Source of the DNA: a virus
Virus record (IMG/VR): IMGVR_UViG_3300022752_000022
Coordinates: 32,001 to 96,000 of that record
Strand: one strand, 5' to 3'
Length of the DNA stretch: 64,000 nt
Numbering within the stretch: the first letter of the stretch is position 1; every line of letters starts with the position of its first letter. This document shows, in pieces, positions 22,176 through 34,328 of this stretch. Position numbers and translations under genes: made by a program. The notes under the pieces are model-generated. The model saw nothing but the letters and a program-made list of their open reading frames with translations, was not told the DNA's origin and did no database searches.

Positions 22176-23072
22176 ATGAGCAATTTTTTCACATCTTTGG
22201 TGGAACAGTTGAAAGATGAAGATACGAAAATTCTTGCGGATGGTGGTGCGTCTGCTGAGTACACTGGTTGTATTGACACTGGATCTTATGCTCTTAATGC
22301 TCTACTTAGCGGTAGTATTTATGGCGGTGTTCCTAATAATAAAGTAACAGCATTTGCAGGCGAATCTGCTACTGGTAAAACTTTTTTTGTCTTGGGTGTT
22401 GTCAAACGATTTTTAGATGATCATCCTGAAGGTGGTGTGATTTACTTTGATACTGAAGCAGCAGTCACCAAGAACATGATGGAATCAAGAGGTATTGATA
22501 CAAAACGTGTAGTCATCTCTGAGCCTGATACAATTCAAAAGTTTAGACATACAGCGTTACAAATTATAGAAAAGTATTCTGCACAGTCTAAAGATAAACG
22601 AAAGCCTATGATGATGGTGCTTGATTCTCAAGGCCAATTATCTTCAACGAAAGAAATGGAAGATAGTTCAGATGGTAAAGAAACACGAGACATGACAAAA
22701 TCTCAGTTGATCAAAGCAACGTTTCGTGTTCTTAATTTGAAACTTGCAAAGATCAATGTGCCACTCATTGTAACGAATCATGTGTATGATGTTGTTGGAT
22801 GTGCATTGGCAGGAACTAAAATTCAAACTATAGACAAATTAAAAAATATTGAAGATATTTTGGTTGGCGATTATGTAAGAACCATGGTTGGAAATAAAAA
22901 AGTAACTCAAACTTTTAAGTATGAGTGTGACCATTATTATGAAATCGAAATGGAAAATAATTACAAATATTATTTGACTGAAGAACACAAATTAATGATT
23001 CAAGATGGAACATGGAAAAAAGTAAAAGATTTAACAGTAGAAGATGTTGTCATTAATGTCGGAACTATTTAA
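22176..23072 (+). CDS. uvsX: UvsX (RecA-like) N-terminal half fused to split-intein N fragment
   Basis: GESATGKT Walker A; extein ends NHVYDVVG; intein starts CALAGTKI (22800) and has LTEEHK block B. Confidence 0.95.
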   Translation: MSNFFTSLVEQLKDEDTKILADGGASAEYTGCIDTGSYALNALLSGSIYGGVPNNKVTAFAGESATGKTFFVLGVVKRFLDDHPEGGVIYFDTEAAVTKNMMESRGIDTKRVVISEPDTIQKFRHTALQIIEKYSAQSKDKRKPMMMVLDSQGQLSSTKEMEDSSDGKETRDMTKSQLIKATFRVLNLKLAKINVPLIVTNHVYDVVGCALAGTKIQTIDKLKNIEDILVGDYVRTMVGNKKVTQTFKYECDHYYEIEMENNYKYYLTEEHKLMIQDGTWKKVKDLTVEDVVINVGTI

Positions 23073-23681
23073 TATTTTTCTGAGATGAAAATAGGAGTAT
23101 GGTGATTTGTTTGAAGCCTCTCTAATAGAATCATATATGATACCATCAACAGATATTTTCTTAGATTTTGGACTATTTTTTCTTTTAGCAATTTTAGAAG
23201 ATTCTGTTGACATGGCGTTTTTCCATTTATCTGATTTTTTTCTCGCATCAGATAATTTTTGAGACATATTATTTTTTATATAATTTTCTCTCATTAATTC
23301 TCTTAAATTTTCATCAATATGTCTATTTTGAAATTTTTCATTTTTCCAAGCAAGTTTTAATGACTCGGATATTTTTTGCTTATGACTATCAGTAATAATT
23401 TGTTTTTTTCTGGATTCTCGTATCTTATTAATCCATTTTTCTTTTCTGCTTGAATTTAAGAGAAATTTATTAAATCCATTATTAGCTAATAATATGCGTT
23501 CTTCTTCAGTCATTTTTCTACCAGAAAGACATTCCCAAGCAATTTTGTCTTCGATTTTTCTATACTTTTCCCAAAGAATTCTATGCGCTTCTGCGTGTTC
23601 TTCTATAGTTAATTCTACTAAATTCTCTGAATCATCTGATCCACCCATATGTTTTGGGATAATGTGATGAATATGTTTCAT
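23031..23681 (-). CDS. Free-standing HNH homing endonuclease (Mob-like, with NUMOD-type DNA-binding repeats)
   Basis: HIHHIIPKHMGGSDDSENLVELTIEEHAEAH; HKQKISES and VDGIIYDSIREAS motifs. Confidence 0.9.
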   Translation of the reverse strand: MKHIHHIIPKHMGGSDDSENLVELTIEEHAEAHRILWEKYRKIEDKIAWECLSGRKMTEEERILLANNGFNKFLLNSSRKEKWINKIRESRKKQIITDSHKQKISESLKLAWKNEKFQNRHIDENLRELMRENYIKNNMSQKLSDARKKSDKWKNAMSTESSKIAKRKNSPKSKKISVDGIIYDSIREASNKSPYSYFHLRKILNSSDINDNIFYC

Positions 23682-23715
23682 AGATGTGTTCGTTTTACTA
23701 TATTGTAGACATGAT

Positions 23716-23723
23716 TATTTATA
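23716..23723 (-). promoter_or_regulatory. T4-type late promoter for the antisense HNH gene
   Basis: TATTTATA on + strand (TATAAATA on -), about 35 nt upstream of the ATG at 23681. Confidence 0.75.
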
Positions 23724-23740
23724 AAAAAGGAGTTTTTAAA

Positions 23741-24298
23741 ATGACTAGTGGTTTAAAAATTAAAAACATTAAAAAAATTGAGTGTGAAAATACTTCAGTT
23801 TTTGATTTTGAAGTTGAAGATGCACATCATTATATTCTAGAGGATGGCACAGTATCTCACAATTCTTATGTGCCAACGAAAGAAATGAGTGGTGGTTCAG
23901 GTTTGAAGTATACAGCATCCACAATTATATATCTTTCAAAGAAGAAAGAAAAAGACGGCACTGAAGTGATTGGTAACATTGTAAAAGCAAGATTGTATAA
24001 GAGCCGATTGACTAAGGAAAATAAAGATGTGGAAGTCAAAATCACCTATGACAAAGGGTTGGATCGACACTATGGTCTCCTCGACATCGCAGAAAAATAT
24101 AACATACTCAAAAAAGTATCAACACGATACGAATTACCAGACGGATCAAAAGTATTCGGTAAAGCAATCAACGACAATCCAGAAAAGTATTGGACCAAAG
24201 AACTCCTGGATATGATTGATGAAGTATGCAAGAAAGAATTCATGTACGGTCAACTTAATGAAATACCAGCTGAGGAGTTAGATAATGAAACTGAATGA
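23741..24298 (+). CDS. uvsX: Split-intein C fragment fused to UvsX C-terminal half
   Basis: [20 protein letters not shown]...[22 protein letters not shown]|[16 protein letters not shown]...KSRLTKE. Confidence 0.95.
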
Positions 24299-24593
24299 AG
24301 ATTTTAAAATAACCGACTACGATCACACCGTAGCGAATACCGCAGTTTTAGAATTAATCGGTGGTGTTCATGATGGTGTTAAATTCTATTTCGGTACAAT
24401 GAGCGTTGAAGAAGCTAATGATGAGGGCATTCTTCATTTTGAATATAGCACAGTCGGCGACTATGAAAAGACTTTGACAGAGCAAGACAAAGCTGAGTTT
24501 GACAAAATGATGGGCGATGTAGTATTATCTATTCTTATGGATAACCTTGAAAAAAGAGAACACGAGAATGCGAATCGAAAACAAGATTCTTAA
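24285..24593 (+). CDS. Hypothetical protein (gp40-like position)
   Basis: Lies between uvsX and gp41 as T4 gp40 does; acidic, ends MGDVVLSIL. Confidence 0.5.
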
Positions 24594-26871: not shown

Positions 26872-27369
26872 ATGAAATTTTTAGAATACATAGCCGAAGC
26901 AACATCAGGCAAAAATCTACATATGGAGCACATTGAGGATAATATTCTCAATGGCGGCGTCTACGGCGCTAGGGAAGCAATCAACTTCCTACGCAAAGTC
27001 CGTGACATGCTTGCGGGCAATTCCGAATCCAAAGTCAATATCACAGTCAAATGGGATGGATGTATCCACGAAGATACAATCGTTCTCACAAATCTTGGTG
27101 ATATGACAATCAAAGAAATAGTAGAGCGATGTCAATGGGACGATAGTCTTATGGTCATGGGCAAGGAATTGGATCTACCATCAAAACCTAATCGCATGGT
27201 TCCTATTTTGGGCGGAATGTTTCAGAATGGAAATAAAAAATGGGTTGAAATTCAACTAGAAGATGGAACAAAATATAAAATGACTGAAGATCATGAGGTG
27301 CATACAGCTAATCGTGGATGGGTAAAAGCATGTGAATTGACTAAAGATGACGATATTACCGAATTATAA
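26872..27369 (+). CDS. RNA-ligase-like (DUF6267-type) protein N-part fused to split-intein N fragment
   Basis: KNLHMEHIED...TVKWDG|CIHEDTIV (Cys at 27061)...MTEDHEV...GWVKACELTKDD. Confidence 0.9.
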   Translation: MKFLEYIAEATSGKNLHMEHIEDNILNGGVYGAREAINFLRKVRDMLAGNSESKVNITVKWDGCIHEDTIVLTNLGDMTIKEIVERCQWDDSLMVMGKELDLPSKPNRMVPILGGMFQNGNKKWVEIQLEDGTKYKMTEDHEVHTANRGWVKACELTKDDDITEL

Positions 27370-27403
27370 AGTGTGATGGTAATCATCTCAAAATGTCTTC
27401 TTT

Positions 27404-27411
27404 TATAAATA
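27404..27411 (+). promoter_or_regulatory. T4-type late promoter
   Basis: TATAAATA upstream of the HNH gene at 27431. Confidence 0.75.
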
Positions 27412-27430
27412 AAATAAAAAGGAGAATGCG

Positions 27431-28066
27431 ATGACTGACGAAATGAAAGAAAAGTATATTCAAAAATATAAAGAAACATATTCGGTTTCTGAAATTTTAA
27501 GAACATTCAATGATGGAATTGGAAGAAAAAAAATCATAAATCTTTTAAAGGAAGAAGGTATATACGAGGGATTAAATGGACCAAATTATCTGAAAAAGAA
27601 AGTTGAAAATAATGAAAAAATAATGATGAAAAAATATGGTGTTATTAATTGGGGACAAACAAAGGATGGCGGTTACAAAAGCCAAAATAAAATACCATAT
27701 AAAAAAATATCTTATTTAAATGAAGAATATAAAGAATACAAAAATCAAGTTGAAAAAGAAACAAAACTTAATATAAAAAATATTGATTTACCTGAATATT
27801 GTTTTTACACAGGAATACAATTTGCAGATGTTGAGGGTCCCGTTAATCCGAATGATCCAAGAAAGAGAAGTGTTGATCATAAAATTCCAGTAATTATTTG
27901 TTATTTAAATGGCTTTTCTACAAATCAAGCTAGTGATTTAACTAACTTGATTTTCGTTTTGAAATATGTCAATTCAATTAAATCAAACACTGATCACGAG
28001 TCATTTTTGAAAATAACACATAAGATTAGGGAGGTATTTGTAAATGAGGGTTATAAGAGTAAATAA
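27431..28066 (+). CDS. Free-standing HNH-type homing endonuclease
   Basis: CFYTG...SVDHKIP...TNL...VNSIKSN; KKYGV motif; very AT-rich; lies between the intein halves. Confidence 0.75.
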   Translation: MTDEMKEKYIQKYKETYSVSEILRTFNDGIGRKKIINLLKEEGIYEGLNGPNYLKKKVENNEKIMMKKYGVINWGQTKDGGYKSQNKIPYKKISYLNEEYKEYKNQVEKETKLNIKNIDLPEYCFYTGIQFADVEGPVNPNDPRKRSVDHKIPVIICYLNGFSTNQASDLTNLIFVLKYVNSIKSNTDHESFLKITHKIREVFVNEGYKSK

Positions 28067-29219
28067 ATTAGAAGAAAAATATACTCAGTATGATATTAGT
28101 ACGTCATCTAATAATTTTTATGTGCAAACAAATTCCGGTAGATATGTATTGATTCATAATTCTCCAGCCATTTTTGCTGGTCAAGATCCGTCAGACGGTC
28201 AATTCTTTGTTGCAAAGAAAGGCATCTTCAACAAAAATCCAAAACTCTACAAGACGAATGCTGAGATTGATGCAGACACTTCAGGTGATTTAGCAGACAA
28301 ACTCAAAGCATGTCTTCAATACTTGCCTGAAATTGGCATCAAAGGTGTCATCCAAGGCGACTTAATGTATACTCAAAGTGATCTAAAAAATGTAACAATT
28401 GATGGTGTAAAGTATACAACATTTCATCCAAATACCATTGTTTATGCGGTGCCTTATGATAGTGACATTGGAAGAACAATCCGCAATTCAAAAATGGGCA
28501 TTGTATGGCATACTAGATATGAAGGCGATACATTAGAAAATATGAAAGCAGTCTTCGGAACTGATATACTTGCTGGTATGAAAAAGTCTAGAAATGTCTG
28601 GTTTGACAATGCAGATTATAAAGATGTTTCAGGCAAAGCGTCCATGACAAAAGAGGAGACTGCTGAAGTGACAAAGGTGCTATCACAAGCAGGAAAAGTT
28701 TTCAATGCAATTGATGGCCGATTTTTAGATTCGCTTTCAGATTATCCAGGCTTCGGTGAAGAGTTGAATACAAGAATTAAAGCATTCAATAATTCTAAAA
28801 TTAAACAGCGCCAAAAAATTACAAATGTTCATAGTCATGTAACAGAAATGCTTGACGCACTCTTAGCACATTATCAGAGTGAGTTTGATAGCAAGAAAAA
28901 GCCTGATGCAAAGAAACGTGCTGAAGTCAAAGTCAATGCTATCAAAAGTATGATAAAATCAAAATACAAAGTTCAATTTGAACATATCTTTACGCTAATG
29001 AATTTGTTAGTTGACGCTAAAGATATGCTCAGTAAGAAATTAGATGAAGTAAAGAGTGTAAACACATTTTTATTAACCAAATCTGGATATCAAGTCACTG
29101 GTGTTGAGGGTTATGTCGCAATTGACAAATTGACTGGTGGTGCCGTGAAGATTGTAGATAGACTACAGTTTAGTTATGCTAATTTTTCTCCAGATGTAAT
29201 CAAAGGATGGGAGAGATAG
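28044..29219 (+). CDS. Split-intein C fragment fused to RNA-ligase-like protein C-part
   Basis: MRVIRVNKLEEKYTQYDISTSSNNFYV...LIHN|SPAIFAG; QGDLMY, EGYV, VKIVDR. Confidence 0.9.
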   Translation: MRVIRVNKLEEKYTQYDISTSSNNFYVQTNSGRYVLIHNSPAIFAGQDPSDGQFFVAKKGIFNKNPKLYKTNAEIDADTSGDLADKLKACLQYLPEIGIKGVIQGDLMYTQSDLKNVTIDGVKYTTFHPNTIVYAVPYDSDIGRTIRNSKMGIVWHTRYEGDTLENMKAVFGTDILAGMKKSRNVWFDNADYKDVSGKASMTKEETAEVTKVLSQAGKVFNAIDGRFLDSLSDYPGFGEELNTRIKAFNNSKIKQRQKITNVHSHVTEMLDALLAHYQSEFDSKKKPDAKKRAEVKVNAIKSMIKSKYKVQFEHIFTLMNLLVDAKDMLSKKLDEVKSVNTFLLTKSGYQVTGVEGYVAIDKLTGGAVKIVDRLQFSYANFSPDVIKGWER

Positions 29220-31421: not shown

Positions 31422-34328
31422 ATGAAAGATAACGTTATTATATCATTTGGTCGTATGAATCCCATGACAAATGGTCATGAGAAACTTGCAACCAAACTTC
31501 AATCAGTAGCAAAGCAGAAACACGGTGATGCTATGCTCTATCTATCACATTCCACAAATCCAAAGAAAGATCCGCTAGATTTTGACACAAAAGTCAAATT
31601 CGCTAAGAAGGCCTTTGGTCCAATGGTAAAAAACTCACCAGCGAGAACAATTTTAGAAGTTGCAAAAGAATTGACAGGTAAGTATAAGAATCTCATTGTC
31701 GTTGTAGGCAGCGACAGAGTTTCAGAATTTCAATCTTTACTCACAAAATATAACGGTAAAGATTATAAGTTTGAGAACATAGAAGTCGTATCAGCAGGAG
31801 AGCGTGATCCAGATGCAGAAGGTGTTACAGGAATGTCTGGTTCAAAAATGAGAGCGTTCGCTTCCGCTAACGATTTTGAAAAGTTTAAACAAGGTGTACC
31901 GTCCAAACTATCCGACGCTGACGCAAAAGCGTTATTTACAGCAGTGAGAAAAGGTATGAAACTAGACGAACAAGTAGACGAATCAATTGTAAGTTTCGCA
32001 CAAAGAAGGCAGCGTTCCGCTAGATTTAAGCGTATGCAGCAAAAATTGCTTCGTACCAGAATGCTTCAAGCGAAACGTGCTGCTGATCCAGAAAGATTAA
32101 AACGTAGGGCTGGCAAACTCGCATATCAGTTTTTTAGAAATAGGGCCGCAGGTGGAAAAGATTATGCTTCGTTAAGTGCCGGCGAAAAAATTATGATTGA
32201 TACAAGACTGCAAAAAATGGTGCCAGCGATTCGAAAATTTGCTTCAAGACTTGTGCCGCTAGCAAGAAAGAAAGATATTCAGCGTAGACAATCTATGATG
32301 ATGCATCGGGCTGAAGAATTAAATCAAATTTTCGCTGAGTGTTTCATTGTAGAAGCAACTAAAGTGCCTCAAGATCCACACATTAAAGGCAAAGAAGGCA
32401 CACAACCTAAAGTTTATTACAAAGGCTTAGACAAAGATACAAAAGAAAAACGATTGGCCCATTTCCGTAAATATGGACCAATGTCAGACCGTGATCCAAA
32501 TGCGTATGTGGACGCACCAGGAGATAAAGAAGCAAGAGAAAAAGGTATGCCGCAATCTAAGCATACTCAAAAGTATAAGCAGATGTACGGTGAAGCAGTA
32601 GCACCACAAGAAAGACAAAAGAACTCAAGATTAGAACAGTTGGTTCGATTAGGTTTAGCAGATGCAAAAATGCTCTCTACAATTAAAAGAGCTGTCGCTA
32701 AATTAAACTCAGGTGACACAATGTCACCGCAAGAGCGTGATGCTACAAATAACCTTTTATCAACACTTCTAGATATGGTAACAAGTGCAGATGCTTTGTT
32801 TAGAATGACAAAGACGCAACTTCAGAAAGAATCTTATGTAGTAGAAAAAGGCGAATACGACGATTACGAAGAAATTGATGGCCTAGAAATGGCTCAAATT
32901 GAAATAGAAAACATCATTCAAGATTCTGAAGATTTGCTTGAAATGATGGATGAAATGGATGAAGAGCCTGAAGCATGGGTGCTATCTAAGATCACTAAAG
33001 CAGCAGATTATATTTCAAGTGTCAGAGACTATCTTCAGTTTGAAGATGATTATGATTATGAGAACGGTGAAGAAGAAGAGGATGACGGTGAGTATGGTAT
33101 GGAAGATGAAATGGAAGTTGAAGACTATCTTGCTTCTATGACACAAGAAGAATTTGAGGATGATGAAGATTTAAGAGCGATTTTTGAAGAAGTTGAAGGC
33201 TTAAAGAAGAAAGCGGAGAAGTCTGGTATTTCTTATAGCATTCTCAAACAAGTGTATAATCGTGGTATGGCTGCATGGCAAACAGGTCATAGACCAGGTA
33301 CAACAGCGCAACAGTGGGCTTTTGCAAGAGTCAATTCGTTTATCACAAAAGGTAAAGGCACATGGGGTGGTGCTGATAGCGATCTAGCAGCAAAAGTTAA
33401 AAAGACAAAAGACACTAACGAAGCATTCTCAAAATTCGCTGAAGCATTAGAATGGGGCACCGATGAATTAAGAAAAGCATATGCTACTGCTACGCCAGGT
33501 CAGTCGCAAGATATACTTATGGCTAAGTATTCAGCAAACTCTGCATTAGATGTGATGAATAATGCTAACACACAAAGACTTTATAAACTTTATAGCGAAG
33601 AACAAGAGTTGCTAGATATCTTTGCTGAAGTCTCGGATGTATCTGAAGCATTCAAATGGCACCAAGAAGAAAGCAAACCACTCCACGAAACAGTGTATCG
33701 TGTTGGTTCAGAAAAATATTTTGAATTCTGGCGTGTAGCAAGACAAATGTATAATGAAGGATTGATGGAGAACATTGATCCAATAGATAAAGCGATTCTT
33801 GAAGAAACGGATTTAGGTGAAATTGTAGAACATGAGGGTGGCTATGTGCCACTTGATTGCCCAATGCTTGAAGAAGGCCTTAACATTTGGAAATATAATC
33901 CTGTGACTGGTTTATGGAGAATTGAACGTGACGTAACTCCAGAAACAAAAGATAAATGGCTTGAAATTTATAGAAAAGATGATCCTAAAGGCAAGTATGT
34001 TGTTTCAGCAAAAAAGCCTTCAAGCAAAGCACACCTAAGAGAAGAAGACGAAAAGAATCCACCACTCAATGAACCAAAACGTGGTGGACCAAAGAAGTTC
34101 TATGTGTACGTTAAAGATCCTAGTACAGGTAATATAAAAAAGGTTACATGGGGCGATACGACAGGATTGTCGGTCAAATTGAATGATCCTGAAGCAAGAA
34201 AGTCATTTGCAGCAAGACATCAATGCTCTATGCAAAAAGATAGAACAAGCGCAGCATATTGGGCTTGCAATACTCCACGATATGCTAAACAACTAGGATT
34301 GTCAGGAGGTGGGGATTTCTACTGGTGA
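31422..34328 (+). CDS. Multidomain protein with N-terminal HIGH-type nucleotidyltransferase (cytidylyltransferase/NMNAT-like)
   Basis: FGRMNPMTNGH, VVGSDR, SAGERDPD, MSGSKMR; followed by many small domains. Confidence 0.85.
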   Translation: MKDNVIISFGRMNPMTNGHEKLATKLQSVAKQKHGDAMLYLSHSTNPKKDPLDFDTKVKFAKKAFGPMVKNSPARTILEVAKELTGKYKNLIVVVGSDRVSEFQSLLTKYNGKDYKFENIEVVSAGERDPDAEGVTGMSGSKMRAFASANDFEKFKQGVPSKLSDADAKALFTAVRKGMKLDEQVDESIVSFAQRRQRSARFKRMQQKLLRTRMLQAKRAADPERLKRRAGKLAYQFFRNRAAGGKDYASLSAGEKIMIDTRLQKMVPAIRKFASRLVPLARKKDIQRRQSMMMHRAEELNQIFAECFIVEATKVPQDPHIKGKEGTQPKVYYKGLDKDTKEKRLAHFRKYGPMSDRDPNAYVDAPGDKEAREKGMPQSKHTQKYKQMYGEAVAPQERQKNSRLEQLVRLGLADAKMLSTIKRAVAKLNSGDTMSPQERDATNNLLSTLLDMVTSADALFRMTKTQLQKESYVVEKGEYDDYEEIDGLEMAQIEIENIIQDSEDLLEMMDEMDEEPEAWVLSKITKAADYISSVRDYLQFEDDYDYENGEEEEDDGEYGMEDEMEVEDYLASMTQEEFEDDEDLRAIFEEVEGLKKKAEKSGISYSILKQVYNRGMAAWQTGHRPGTTAQQWAFARVNSFITKGKGTWGGADSDLAAKVKKTKDTNEAFSKFAEALEWGTDELRKAYATATPGQSQDILMAKYSANSALDVMNNANTQRLYKLYSEEQELLDIFAEVSDVSEAFKWHQEESKPLHETVYRVGSEKYFEFWRVARQMYNEGLMENIDPIDKAILEETDLGEIVEHEGGYVPLDCPMLEEGLNIWKYNPVTGLWRIERDVTPETKDKWLEIYRKDDPKGKYVVSAKKPSSKAHLREEDEKNPPLNEPKRGGPKKFYVYVKDPSTGNIKKVTWGDTTGLSVKLNDPEARKSFAARHQCSMQKDRTSAAYWACNTPRYAKQLGLSGGGDFYW

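Follow-up and report, generated by a model that had tools for sequence, protein, structure and literature searches.

The 64,000-nucleotide stretch analysed here (the window) covers positions 32,001 to 96,000 of IMG/VR record IMGVR_UViG_3300022752_000022, a 149,598-bp virus record with direct terminal repeats that is rated 100% complete. The source is an uncultured T4-like phage with a genome of 36% G+C, in which a mobile cassette divides the recombinase gene uvsX into two separate genes. The gene lies in a T4-like replication module that runs along the plus strand in the order DNA polymerase, two small genes, uvsX, a small gene and a gp41-type helicase. Specifically, the cassette comprises 1,064 bp, is inserted in frame at a VG|SY codon junction of uvsX, and supplies the two halves of an intein (IntN and IntC) together with a free-standing HNH homing endonuclease gene on the opposite strand. 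Searching deposited phages at the DNA level gave no match, and the phage has no close cultured relative. The locus is made up of the following features.

22176-23072, plus strand: uvsX-N open reading frame (ORF), 298 amino acids (aa), consisting of 208 UvsX residues and the 90-aa IntN.
22176-22799, plus strand: uvsX N-extein, 208 codons, ending NHVYDVVG.
22800-23072, plus strand: IntN, the N-half of the intein, 90 codons and a stop, with Cys1 and T60xxH63.
23031-23681, minus strand: free-standing HNH homing endonuclease gene, 216 codons, antisense to uvsX.
23031-23072, both strands: tail-to-tail coding overlap of IntN and the HNH gene, 42 nucleotides (nt), read from the sequence.
23682-23740: divergent spacer from the HNH start to the uvsX-C start, 59 nt.
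23716-23723, minus strand: T4-type late promoter motif TATAAATA, an exact match that faces the HNH gene.
23727-23732, plus strand: Shine-Dalgarno sequence AAGGAG of uvsX-C, 8 nt before the ATG.
23741-24298, plus strand: uvsX-C ORF, with its ATG at 23741, encoding the 41-aa IntC, Ser and 143 further residues.
23741-23863, plus strand: IntC, the C-half of the intein, 41 codons, ending VSHN.
23864-24298, plus strand: uvsX C-extein, Ser+1, 143 codons and a stop.

An earlier note on this DNA had described the same arrangement, and all of its coordinates and motifs proved correct when uvsX-N, the HNH gene, the overlap, TATAAATA and uvsX-C were re-read in the sequence. Each strand is coding throughout the overlap, and the stop codons of the two genes mark its opposite ends. 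Searches of Pfam and PHROGs called RecA/UvsX and Intein_splicing on both uvsX halves, and HNH/homing endonuclease on the antisense ORF that sits between them.

The exteins align to a single recombinase. Residues 3-208 of the N-extein align to residues 2-209 of the phage recombinase UvsX in PDB entry 9gbg (E 1.8e-75), and the same extein matches the UvsX-like PHROG 97 (4e-60). Similarly, the C-extein matches residues 207-334 of 9gbg (E 7.8e-56), a structure that is uninterrupted across the VG|(A/S)Y junction. A scan of viral contigs with uvsX-N yielded 63 loci, and in 54 of these the N- and C-extein matches abut at VG|(A/S)Y with zero extra codons. The nearest intein-less allele (L010) has 352 codons, is 99% identical to the window over the N-extein and 97% over the C-extein, and represents a type whose junction reads GTTGTTGGT|GCT. 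Because this gene is intact and nearly identical, the product predicted to result from splicing (208 + 144 = 352 aa) exists naturally as an uninterrupted protein. Thus, the 352-aa product proposed in the earlier note, in which VG|SY restores a continuous UvsX, is matched by the 54 intein-less alleles and by 9gbg.

The arrangement is not confined to the window. The same layout, with an antisense HNH gene whose tail overlaps IntN by 33-42 nt, is present on approximately 17 independent metagenomic or viral contigs that fall into at least three diverged lineages. The tail overlap, again of 33-42 nt, has been retained in lineages B and D.

Lineage A (L003-L007): cassette identity to the window 89-92% in L003-L006 and 72% in L007.
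Lineage B (L008/L009): identity to the window 45% for IntN, 56% for HNH and 56% for IntC.
Lineage D (L071-L079): identity to the window 51-69% for the exteins, 58% for IntN, 54% for HNH and approximately 72% for IntC.

The residues that flank the insertion differ between occupied and empty alleles. Position +1 is Ser in all intein-bearing alleles with a readable junction, whereas Ala stands at the same position in 48 of the 54 empty alleles. Ser+1 is needed by the chemistry of splicing. That Ser always accompanies the intein, while Ala mostly prevails in its absence, argues that the halves truly splice rather than merely associate. The spliced UvsX would differ from the intein-less alleles mainly in having Ser for Ala at the junction. 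Likewise, the codon for Gly-1 is GGA in lineages A and B, and GGA is used in 0 of the 54 empty alleles. Both Ser+1 and the GGA codon of Gly-1 therefore look like flanking markers that travel with the cassette. The insertion site VG|SY falls at what we take to be the N-terminal edge of the stretch that aligns to the DNA-binding loop L2 of RecA. By the same RecA alignment, the 11 residues that follow the junction presumably correspond to the last part of loop L2, with the conserved GG-N/S-ALK/GLK motif directly after them.

All residues associated with splicing are in place. Cys1 of the intein is residue 209 of uvsX-N, encoded by TGT at 22800-22802, and is kept in lineages A, B and D. IntN begins CALAGTK, and its block B reads T60-E-E-H63 (within LTEEH), with TxEH present in all aligned IntN sequences. 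IntC ends VSHN and is followed by Ser (23864), and the terminal HN is present in every lineage. Cys1, T60xxH63, the terminal His-Asn and Ser+1 are thus all kept across lineages whose inteins are only 45-58% identical. Both halves match the Pfam family Intein_splicing, IntC over positions 122-155 of 155. As a single sequence, IntN matches the gp41-1 split intein (6qaz) with an E value of 2e-4. When an intein family profile was built from the IntN and IntC sequences of all lineages plus one contiguous relative, the match to gp41-1 reached E 4.5e-14, and further matches were obtained to DnaE inteins (1e-6 to 1e-3), the AceL NrdHF split intein and an intein-like domain of bacterial origin. Over its first 15 residues IntC has a net charge of +3, and over its last 30 residues IntN has one of -2, which fits the local charge complementarity described for split inteins.

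Two related contigs (L078:2037-2948, minus strand, and L079) carry two inteins in uvsX. In each, the split intein with its antisense HNH gene occupies VG|SY, a contiguous 132-aa mini-intein occupies GG|SG, and an 11-residue extein lies between the two.

The L078 mini-intein is 42% identical to IntN of the window and 54% identical to its IntC. A structural model of this homologue is a Hint domain (pLDDT, the predicted local distance difference test score, of 90) that superimposes on gp41-1 (6qaz) with a TM-score of 0.84-0.86 and a root-mean-square deviation of 1.8 Å; dozens of other inteins match the model after gp41-1. When aligned to the mini-intein, IntN covers its N-terminal part and IntC its C-terminal part, which places the split point of the window intein at the position usually taken by the endonuclease domain of inteins. 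These comparisons suggest that the window intein arose when the HNH gene split a mini-intein of the gp41-1 type at the usual point of endonuclease insertion. The gp41-1 intein (6qaz, 6riz) is the best match to the window intein in both sequence and fold. The two have in common an N-half of approximately 88-90 aa, a C-half of approximately 37-41 aa, Cys1, a terminal HN and Ser+1, but they share only approximately 30% identity, and their hosts differ, a recombinase in the window and a helicase for gp41-1.

The protein encoded by the antisense gene contains the motif HHIIPKHMGG...NL...EEH, and the corresponding pattern HHI.P...GG...NL..L..EH is intact in all lineages. It scores 22.4 bits against PF01844 (cut-off 21.4), matches PHROG 655, a homing endonuclease family, at 1.5e-19, and also matches the HNH domain of the group II intron maturase 6me0. 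A C-terminal block of the protein is conserved in the alignment. By crude ORF calling, the gene is the only one on the minus strand within a plus-strand block of approximately 85 kb. Viral contigs contained 67 relatives of the HNH protein, and most of these are encoded in the same direction as the neighbouring genes. The uvsX-associated clade is exceptional, being antisense wherever both neighbours could be called (11 of 13 members).

On four further contigs (L080:1679-3361, and likewise L081, L082 and L087) a 46% identical HNH homologue lies between the DNA polymerase gene and an intact uvsX. These copies are free-standing, antisense and located just upstream of uvsX, and their leader is the same as in the intein-embedded copies of lineage D. 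The HNH gene, with its predicted promoter, leader and ORF, thus behaves as an autonomous unit that resides either beside uvsX or inside its intein.

Comparison of substitution rates within the cassette and within its host gene reveals both constraint and mobility. All three parts of the cassette are under purifying selection. Between the window and the lineage A locus L004, the ratio of nonsynonymous to synonymous substitution rates (dN/dS) is 0.19 for IntN, 0.13 for HNH and 0.14 for IntC; the overall range for HNH is 0.13-0.26, and that for the exteins is 0.01-0.13, indicating strong purifying selection. For the same pair, the cassette parts have 89-93% DNA identity and a dS of 0.26-0.45, whereas the two exteins have 78% and 71% DNA identity and dS values of 1.9 and 1.6, respectively. 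Cassette dS is therefore 4-7 times below extein dS, and the step in identity is abrupt at the intein borders. Because its dS lies far below that of the host gene, the cassette is judged to be much younger than uvsX and thus mobile. In addition, the exteins of the cassette-free L010 are 91-95% identical to those of the window. The presence or absence of the HNH cassette is polymorphic, and its history is discordant with that of uvsX.

The late promoter motif TATAAATA occurs 21 times in the genome, and 14 of the 21 copies lie no more than 60 nt upstream of a start codon on the same strand. The minus-strand copy at 23716-23723 sits 35 nt from the HNH ATG. A copy facing HNH is conserved in lineages A, B and D, where it falls within the central block of the spacer, the only one that is conserved, the coding parts of these lineages being only approximately 50% identical. 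This copy is predicted to be a T4-type late promoter, and the genome-wide placement of the motif is as expected for one.

The C-half of uvsX has a recognisable ribosome-binding site, which reads AAGGAG or AAGAGG in lineages A and B; in lineage D the sites are of the GGAG type and their positions are shifted. In the spacer of the window lineage, no conserved plus-strand promoter was found for uvsX-C. Two candidates were rejected. A sigma-70-type promoter at 23677-23704 (9/12 matches) is not conserved in relatives, and the near-match TATAAAAA at 23720-23727 is, by reasoning, too near the ATG, such that its transcript would lose the ribosome-binding site. A search across the antisense gene found no convincing terminator, only one weak plus-strand hairpin that does not exceed shuffled sequence. 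Given that neither a conserved promoter nor a convincing terminator was found, read-through from upstream is the simplest route, and in the window lineage uvsX-C is most likely expressed from read-through transcripts that cross the antisense HNH gene. That late transcription of HNH might interfere with the supply of UvsX is speculation.

The lineage D spacer (L071:2949-3000) differs from that of the window in that two copies of TATAAATA are placed back to back on opposite strands with a 2-nt overlap, one facing HNH and the other facing uvsX-C. Thus, a dedicated C-half promoter is predicted in relatives but not in the window. Downstream of uvsX, a near-consensus sigma-70-type site (TTGACA-18-TATTAT, at 24499-24528 of the window) lies inside the small ORF that immediately precedes the helicase gene (start at 24547), so that expression of the helicase may be independent of transcripts running through the cassette.

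A search for inverted repeats that would mark an inversion of the endonuclease gene returned only chance-level pairs. The longest (22768-22795 and 23697-23724) extends over 28 nt, is 71% complementary, has the shared core AATCATGT, and joins uvsX just before the insertion site with the conserved promoter and leader block of HNH. It is more probably a product of chance in A+T-rich DNA than a relic of the target site.

We consider it likely that the locus is a mobile split-intein and endonuclease cassette in uvsX, and that UvsX is joined by protein trans-splicing. At the sequence level, the earlier suggestion of a recombinase that depends on trans-splicing draws support from the exact insertion, the conserved splicing residues, the match to gp41-1 and the purifying selection. 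Two polypeptides would be made, UvsX(1-208)-IntN and IntC-UvsX(209-352), the latter from read-through transcripts that bring uvsX-C to the ribosome across the antisense HNH gene. The intein halves would then associate and trans-splice by way of Cys1, TxxH, the terminal HN and Ser+1 to yield the 352-aa UvsX. The HNH gene would be transcribed late from the minus-strand TATAAATA, and its enzyme would cut or nick intein-less uvsX alleles of co-infecting relatives, after which recombinational repair would copy the whole cassette, along with the Ser+1 codon, into the cut allele. Our confidence is higher than this for the anatomy and the family assignments, and lower for the cleavage target and the route of transcription.

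Several observations weigh against this proposal. There is no recognisable Shine-Dalgarno sequence at the HNH start, and the HNH leader has no significant RNA structure that would hide the start (z = +1.4). The margin by which the HNH protein exceeds the PF01844 cut-off is narrow, and its C-terminal module scores 22.3 bits against PF20987 (I-TevI_DNA-bd), below the cut-off of 27. The Hint model was built on the L078 homologue, which occupies the neighbouring site and is 42-54% identical to the window's split pair, not on that pair itself. Furthermore, searches for other forms at the VG|S site brought up neither a contiguous intein nor one lacking an endonuclease gene: a protein search with the intein parts gave only the same layout, and a degenerate DNA pattern across the VG|S junction added only one truncated fragment of this site and chance matches. 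The order of events, intein first and endonuclease second, is accordingly taken by analogy from the neighbouring site.

Other explanations of the locus must be compared with this one. The UvsX fragments could work as a non-covalent complex in which the intein halves associate and never splice, as in the case of NrdA and mobE of phage Aeh1. Functional split genes that need no ligation are indeed known in T4-like phages (PMC2677866, PMC3045599). However, all splicing residues are kept despite 45-58% identity between the inteins of different lineages, an invariant Ser+1, set against Ala in 48 of the 54 empty alleles, would be expected only of an intein that makes use of the +1 nucleophile, and UvsX could hardly accommodate approximately 130 additional residues at the edge of the L2 loop region. 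We regard a purely non-covalent recombinase as highly improbable. We give almost no credence to the possibility that the split is an assembly artefact or chimera, or that the genome is defective and its uvsX a pseudogene. The record does derive from a metagenome, but the same junctions recur on approximately 17 independent contigs from different samples and three diverged lineages, the terminal repeats and completeness rating of the record speak for an intact genome, and the dN/dS values of 0.01-0.13 show that the exteins are under strong purifying selection.

The cassette might also be a fixed, vertically inherited relic whose HNH enzyme no longer homes, in which case the antisense orientation would be inconsequential. 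Homing cycles end with decay of the endonuclease, and a gene with no clear ribosome-binding site and a score barely above the Pfam cut-off could be read as approaching that state. This is improbable in view of the dN/dS of 0.13-0.26 for HNH, the intact catalytic motif in all lineages, the conserved promoter and leader, the 4- to 7-fold lower dS of the cassette between the window and L004, and the existence of the nearly identical L010 uvsX that has no cassette. Returning to the mobile, trans-splicing cassette, one could go further and propose that the antisense, tail-overlapping orientation is a selected regulatory design rather than an accident of insertion, although we think this unlikely. 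The orientation does hold for every uvsX-associated member of the HNH clade in which both neighbours could be called. If the proposal is true, late transcription of HNH would collide with the uvsX-N message and oppose the read-through to uvsX-C, such that a selfish cassette would time or throttle the very recombinase needed for its own homing. Lineage D would then have compensated by gaining a second late promoter that faces the C-half.

The closest precedents for this arrangement are the fractured genes that were discovered in ocean metagenomes, namely gp41, DnaE, NrdA, NrdJ and IMPDH (Dassa et al., 2009; PMC2677866). As defined in that work, fractured genes encode conserved enzymes and are interrupted by a split intein whose two coding halves flank a free-standing endonuclease gene. 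The ORFs share one strand, with short non-coding spacers, and the endonucleases are GIY-YIG or Vsr-like; HNH enzymes were only suggested as possible, and uvsX was mentioned merely as a neighbour (PMC2677866). The window has the core elements of this definition and departs from it in strand and in endonuclease family. It resembles the known examples in that a conserved phage replication or repair enzyme is interrupted, in the setting of a T4-like marine phage, by a mini-intein split at the canonical endonuclease point and accompanied by a free-standing endonuclease gene; gp41-1, the intein it matches best, was itself among those described there. It differs in that the endonuclease is of the HNH family, is encoded antisense with a 42-nt overlap with IntN, and has uvsX as its host gene.

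Fractured uvsX genes also exist in cultured T4-like phages, including Escherichia phage HY03 (KR269718; L152, 99514-101999), Shewanella phage Thanatos-1 (MT457552; L153), Proteus phage Pm5461 and others. The HY03 and Thanatos-1 annotations treat the two halves as distinct proteins, labelled either recombination or hypothetical. The HY03-type gene is interrupted by a homologous split intein, with approximately 36% identity in IntN (CVIAGTKIQ compared with CALAGTKIQ in the window), and likewise has an endonuclease gene between its halves. In this type, however, the insertion site is GG|(T/S)G, 11 codons downstream of the window site, where the L2-equivalent stretch has its opposite edge, and the intervening endonuclease gene is GIY-YIG/Seg-like (annotated so in Thanatos-1) and on the same strand, unlike the antisense HNH gene of the window. 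A literature search of limited coverage found no account of a split intein in uvsX, HY03-type loci included, or of an antisense endonuclease gene in a split intein. The features that appear to go beyond known fractured genes are the antisense HNH gene, the VG|SY site, the coding overlap and the uvsX host.

Two further systems are instructive. SegA of phage T4 is a free-standing endonuclease whose gene lies next to uvsX and which targets uvsX; like other such endonucleases beside uvsX, it is expressed from a promoter of its own, and its homing involves no intron (Edgell, Gibb and Belfort, 2010; PMC2988022). The HNH relatives of the L080 type resemble it in sitting just outside an intact uvsX. 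SegA itself is a GIY-YIG enzyme with an intergenic gene that leaves uvsX intact, whereas the endonuclease gene of the window lies inside an intein within the coding sequence. In phage Aeh1, nrdA is split by the HNH gene mobE, and the resulting NrdA fragments form a non-covalent assembly (Friedrich et al., 2007; Crona et al., 2011; PMC3045599). There too, an HNH homing endonuclease gene breaks an essential T4-like gene into two expressed pieces, and mobE is expressed late; unlike the window, Aeh1 nrdA has no intein, and mobE is on the same strand.

Further states of the gene were encountered among the related contigs. On one of these (L011:2387-4599), a related split intein interrupts uvsX at GG|SG, and a same-strand gene for a 242-aa HNH protein lies between the halves. 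This is the canonical fractured layout, but with an HNH endonuclease. A candidate intein in Methylophilales phage Melnitz was discarded because its tblastn match, with 93% coverage, was over-extended; recA there is intact, with 353 codons.

The window also holds a second fractured gene (26872-29219), 3 kb downstream of uvsX. Its N-half (26872-27369) consists of a 63-aa extein ending VKWDG followed by IntN, and its C-half (28044-29219) begins with an IntC that ends IHN, with Ser as the next residue. The HNH gene of this locus (27431-28066) is on the same strand, with a copy of TATAAATA of its own at 27404-27411. The intein halves of this gene are without obvious similarity to the uvsX pair, and the genome on this basis holds two split inteins that are probably orthogonal. 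The gp41-1-like halves in uvsX and the second, unrelated split pair 3 kb away are candidates for new orthogonal tools for trans-splicing.

The uvsX locus extends the fractured-gene layout to an HNH endonuclease, to an opposite-strand gene with a coding overlap, and to a host gene, uvsX, whose product is the very recombinase that homing requires. The antisense design, homing that would depend on the interrupted recombinase, and the available intermediate states make this a good experimental system, though similar loci recur. Together, the related contigs form an evolutionary series of empty alleles, an endonuclease gene beside uvsX, a contiguous mini-intein, split inteins and two-intein alleles. 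The series includes both same-strand and antisense endonucleases at two sites, one on either side of the L2-equivalent loop and separated by 11 codons, and it would allow testing of the proposal that inteins are split by endonuclease invasion.

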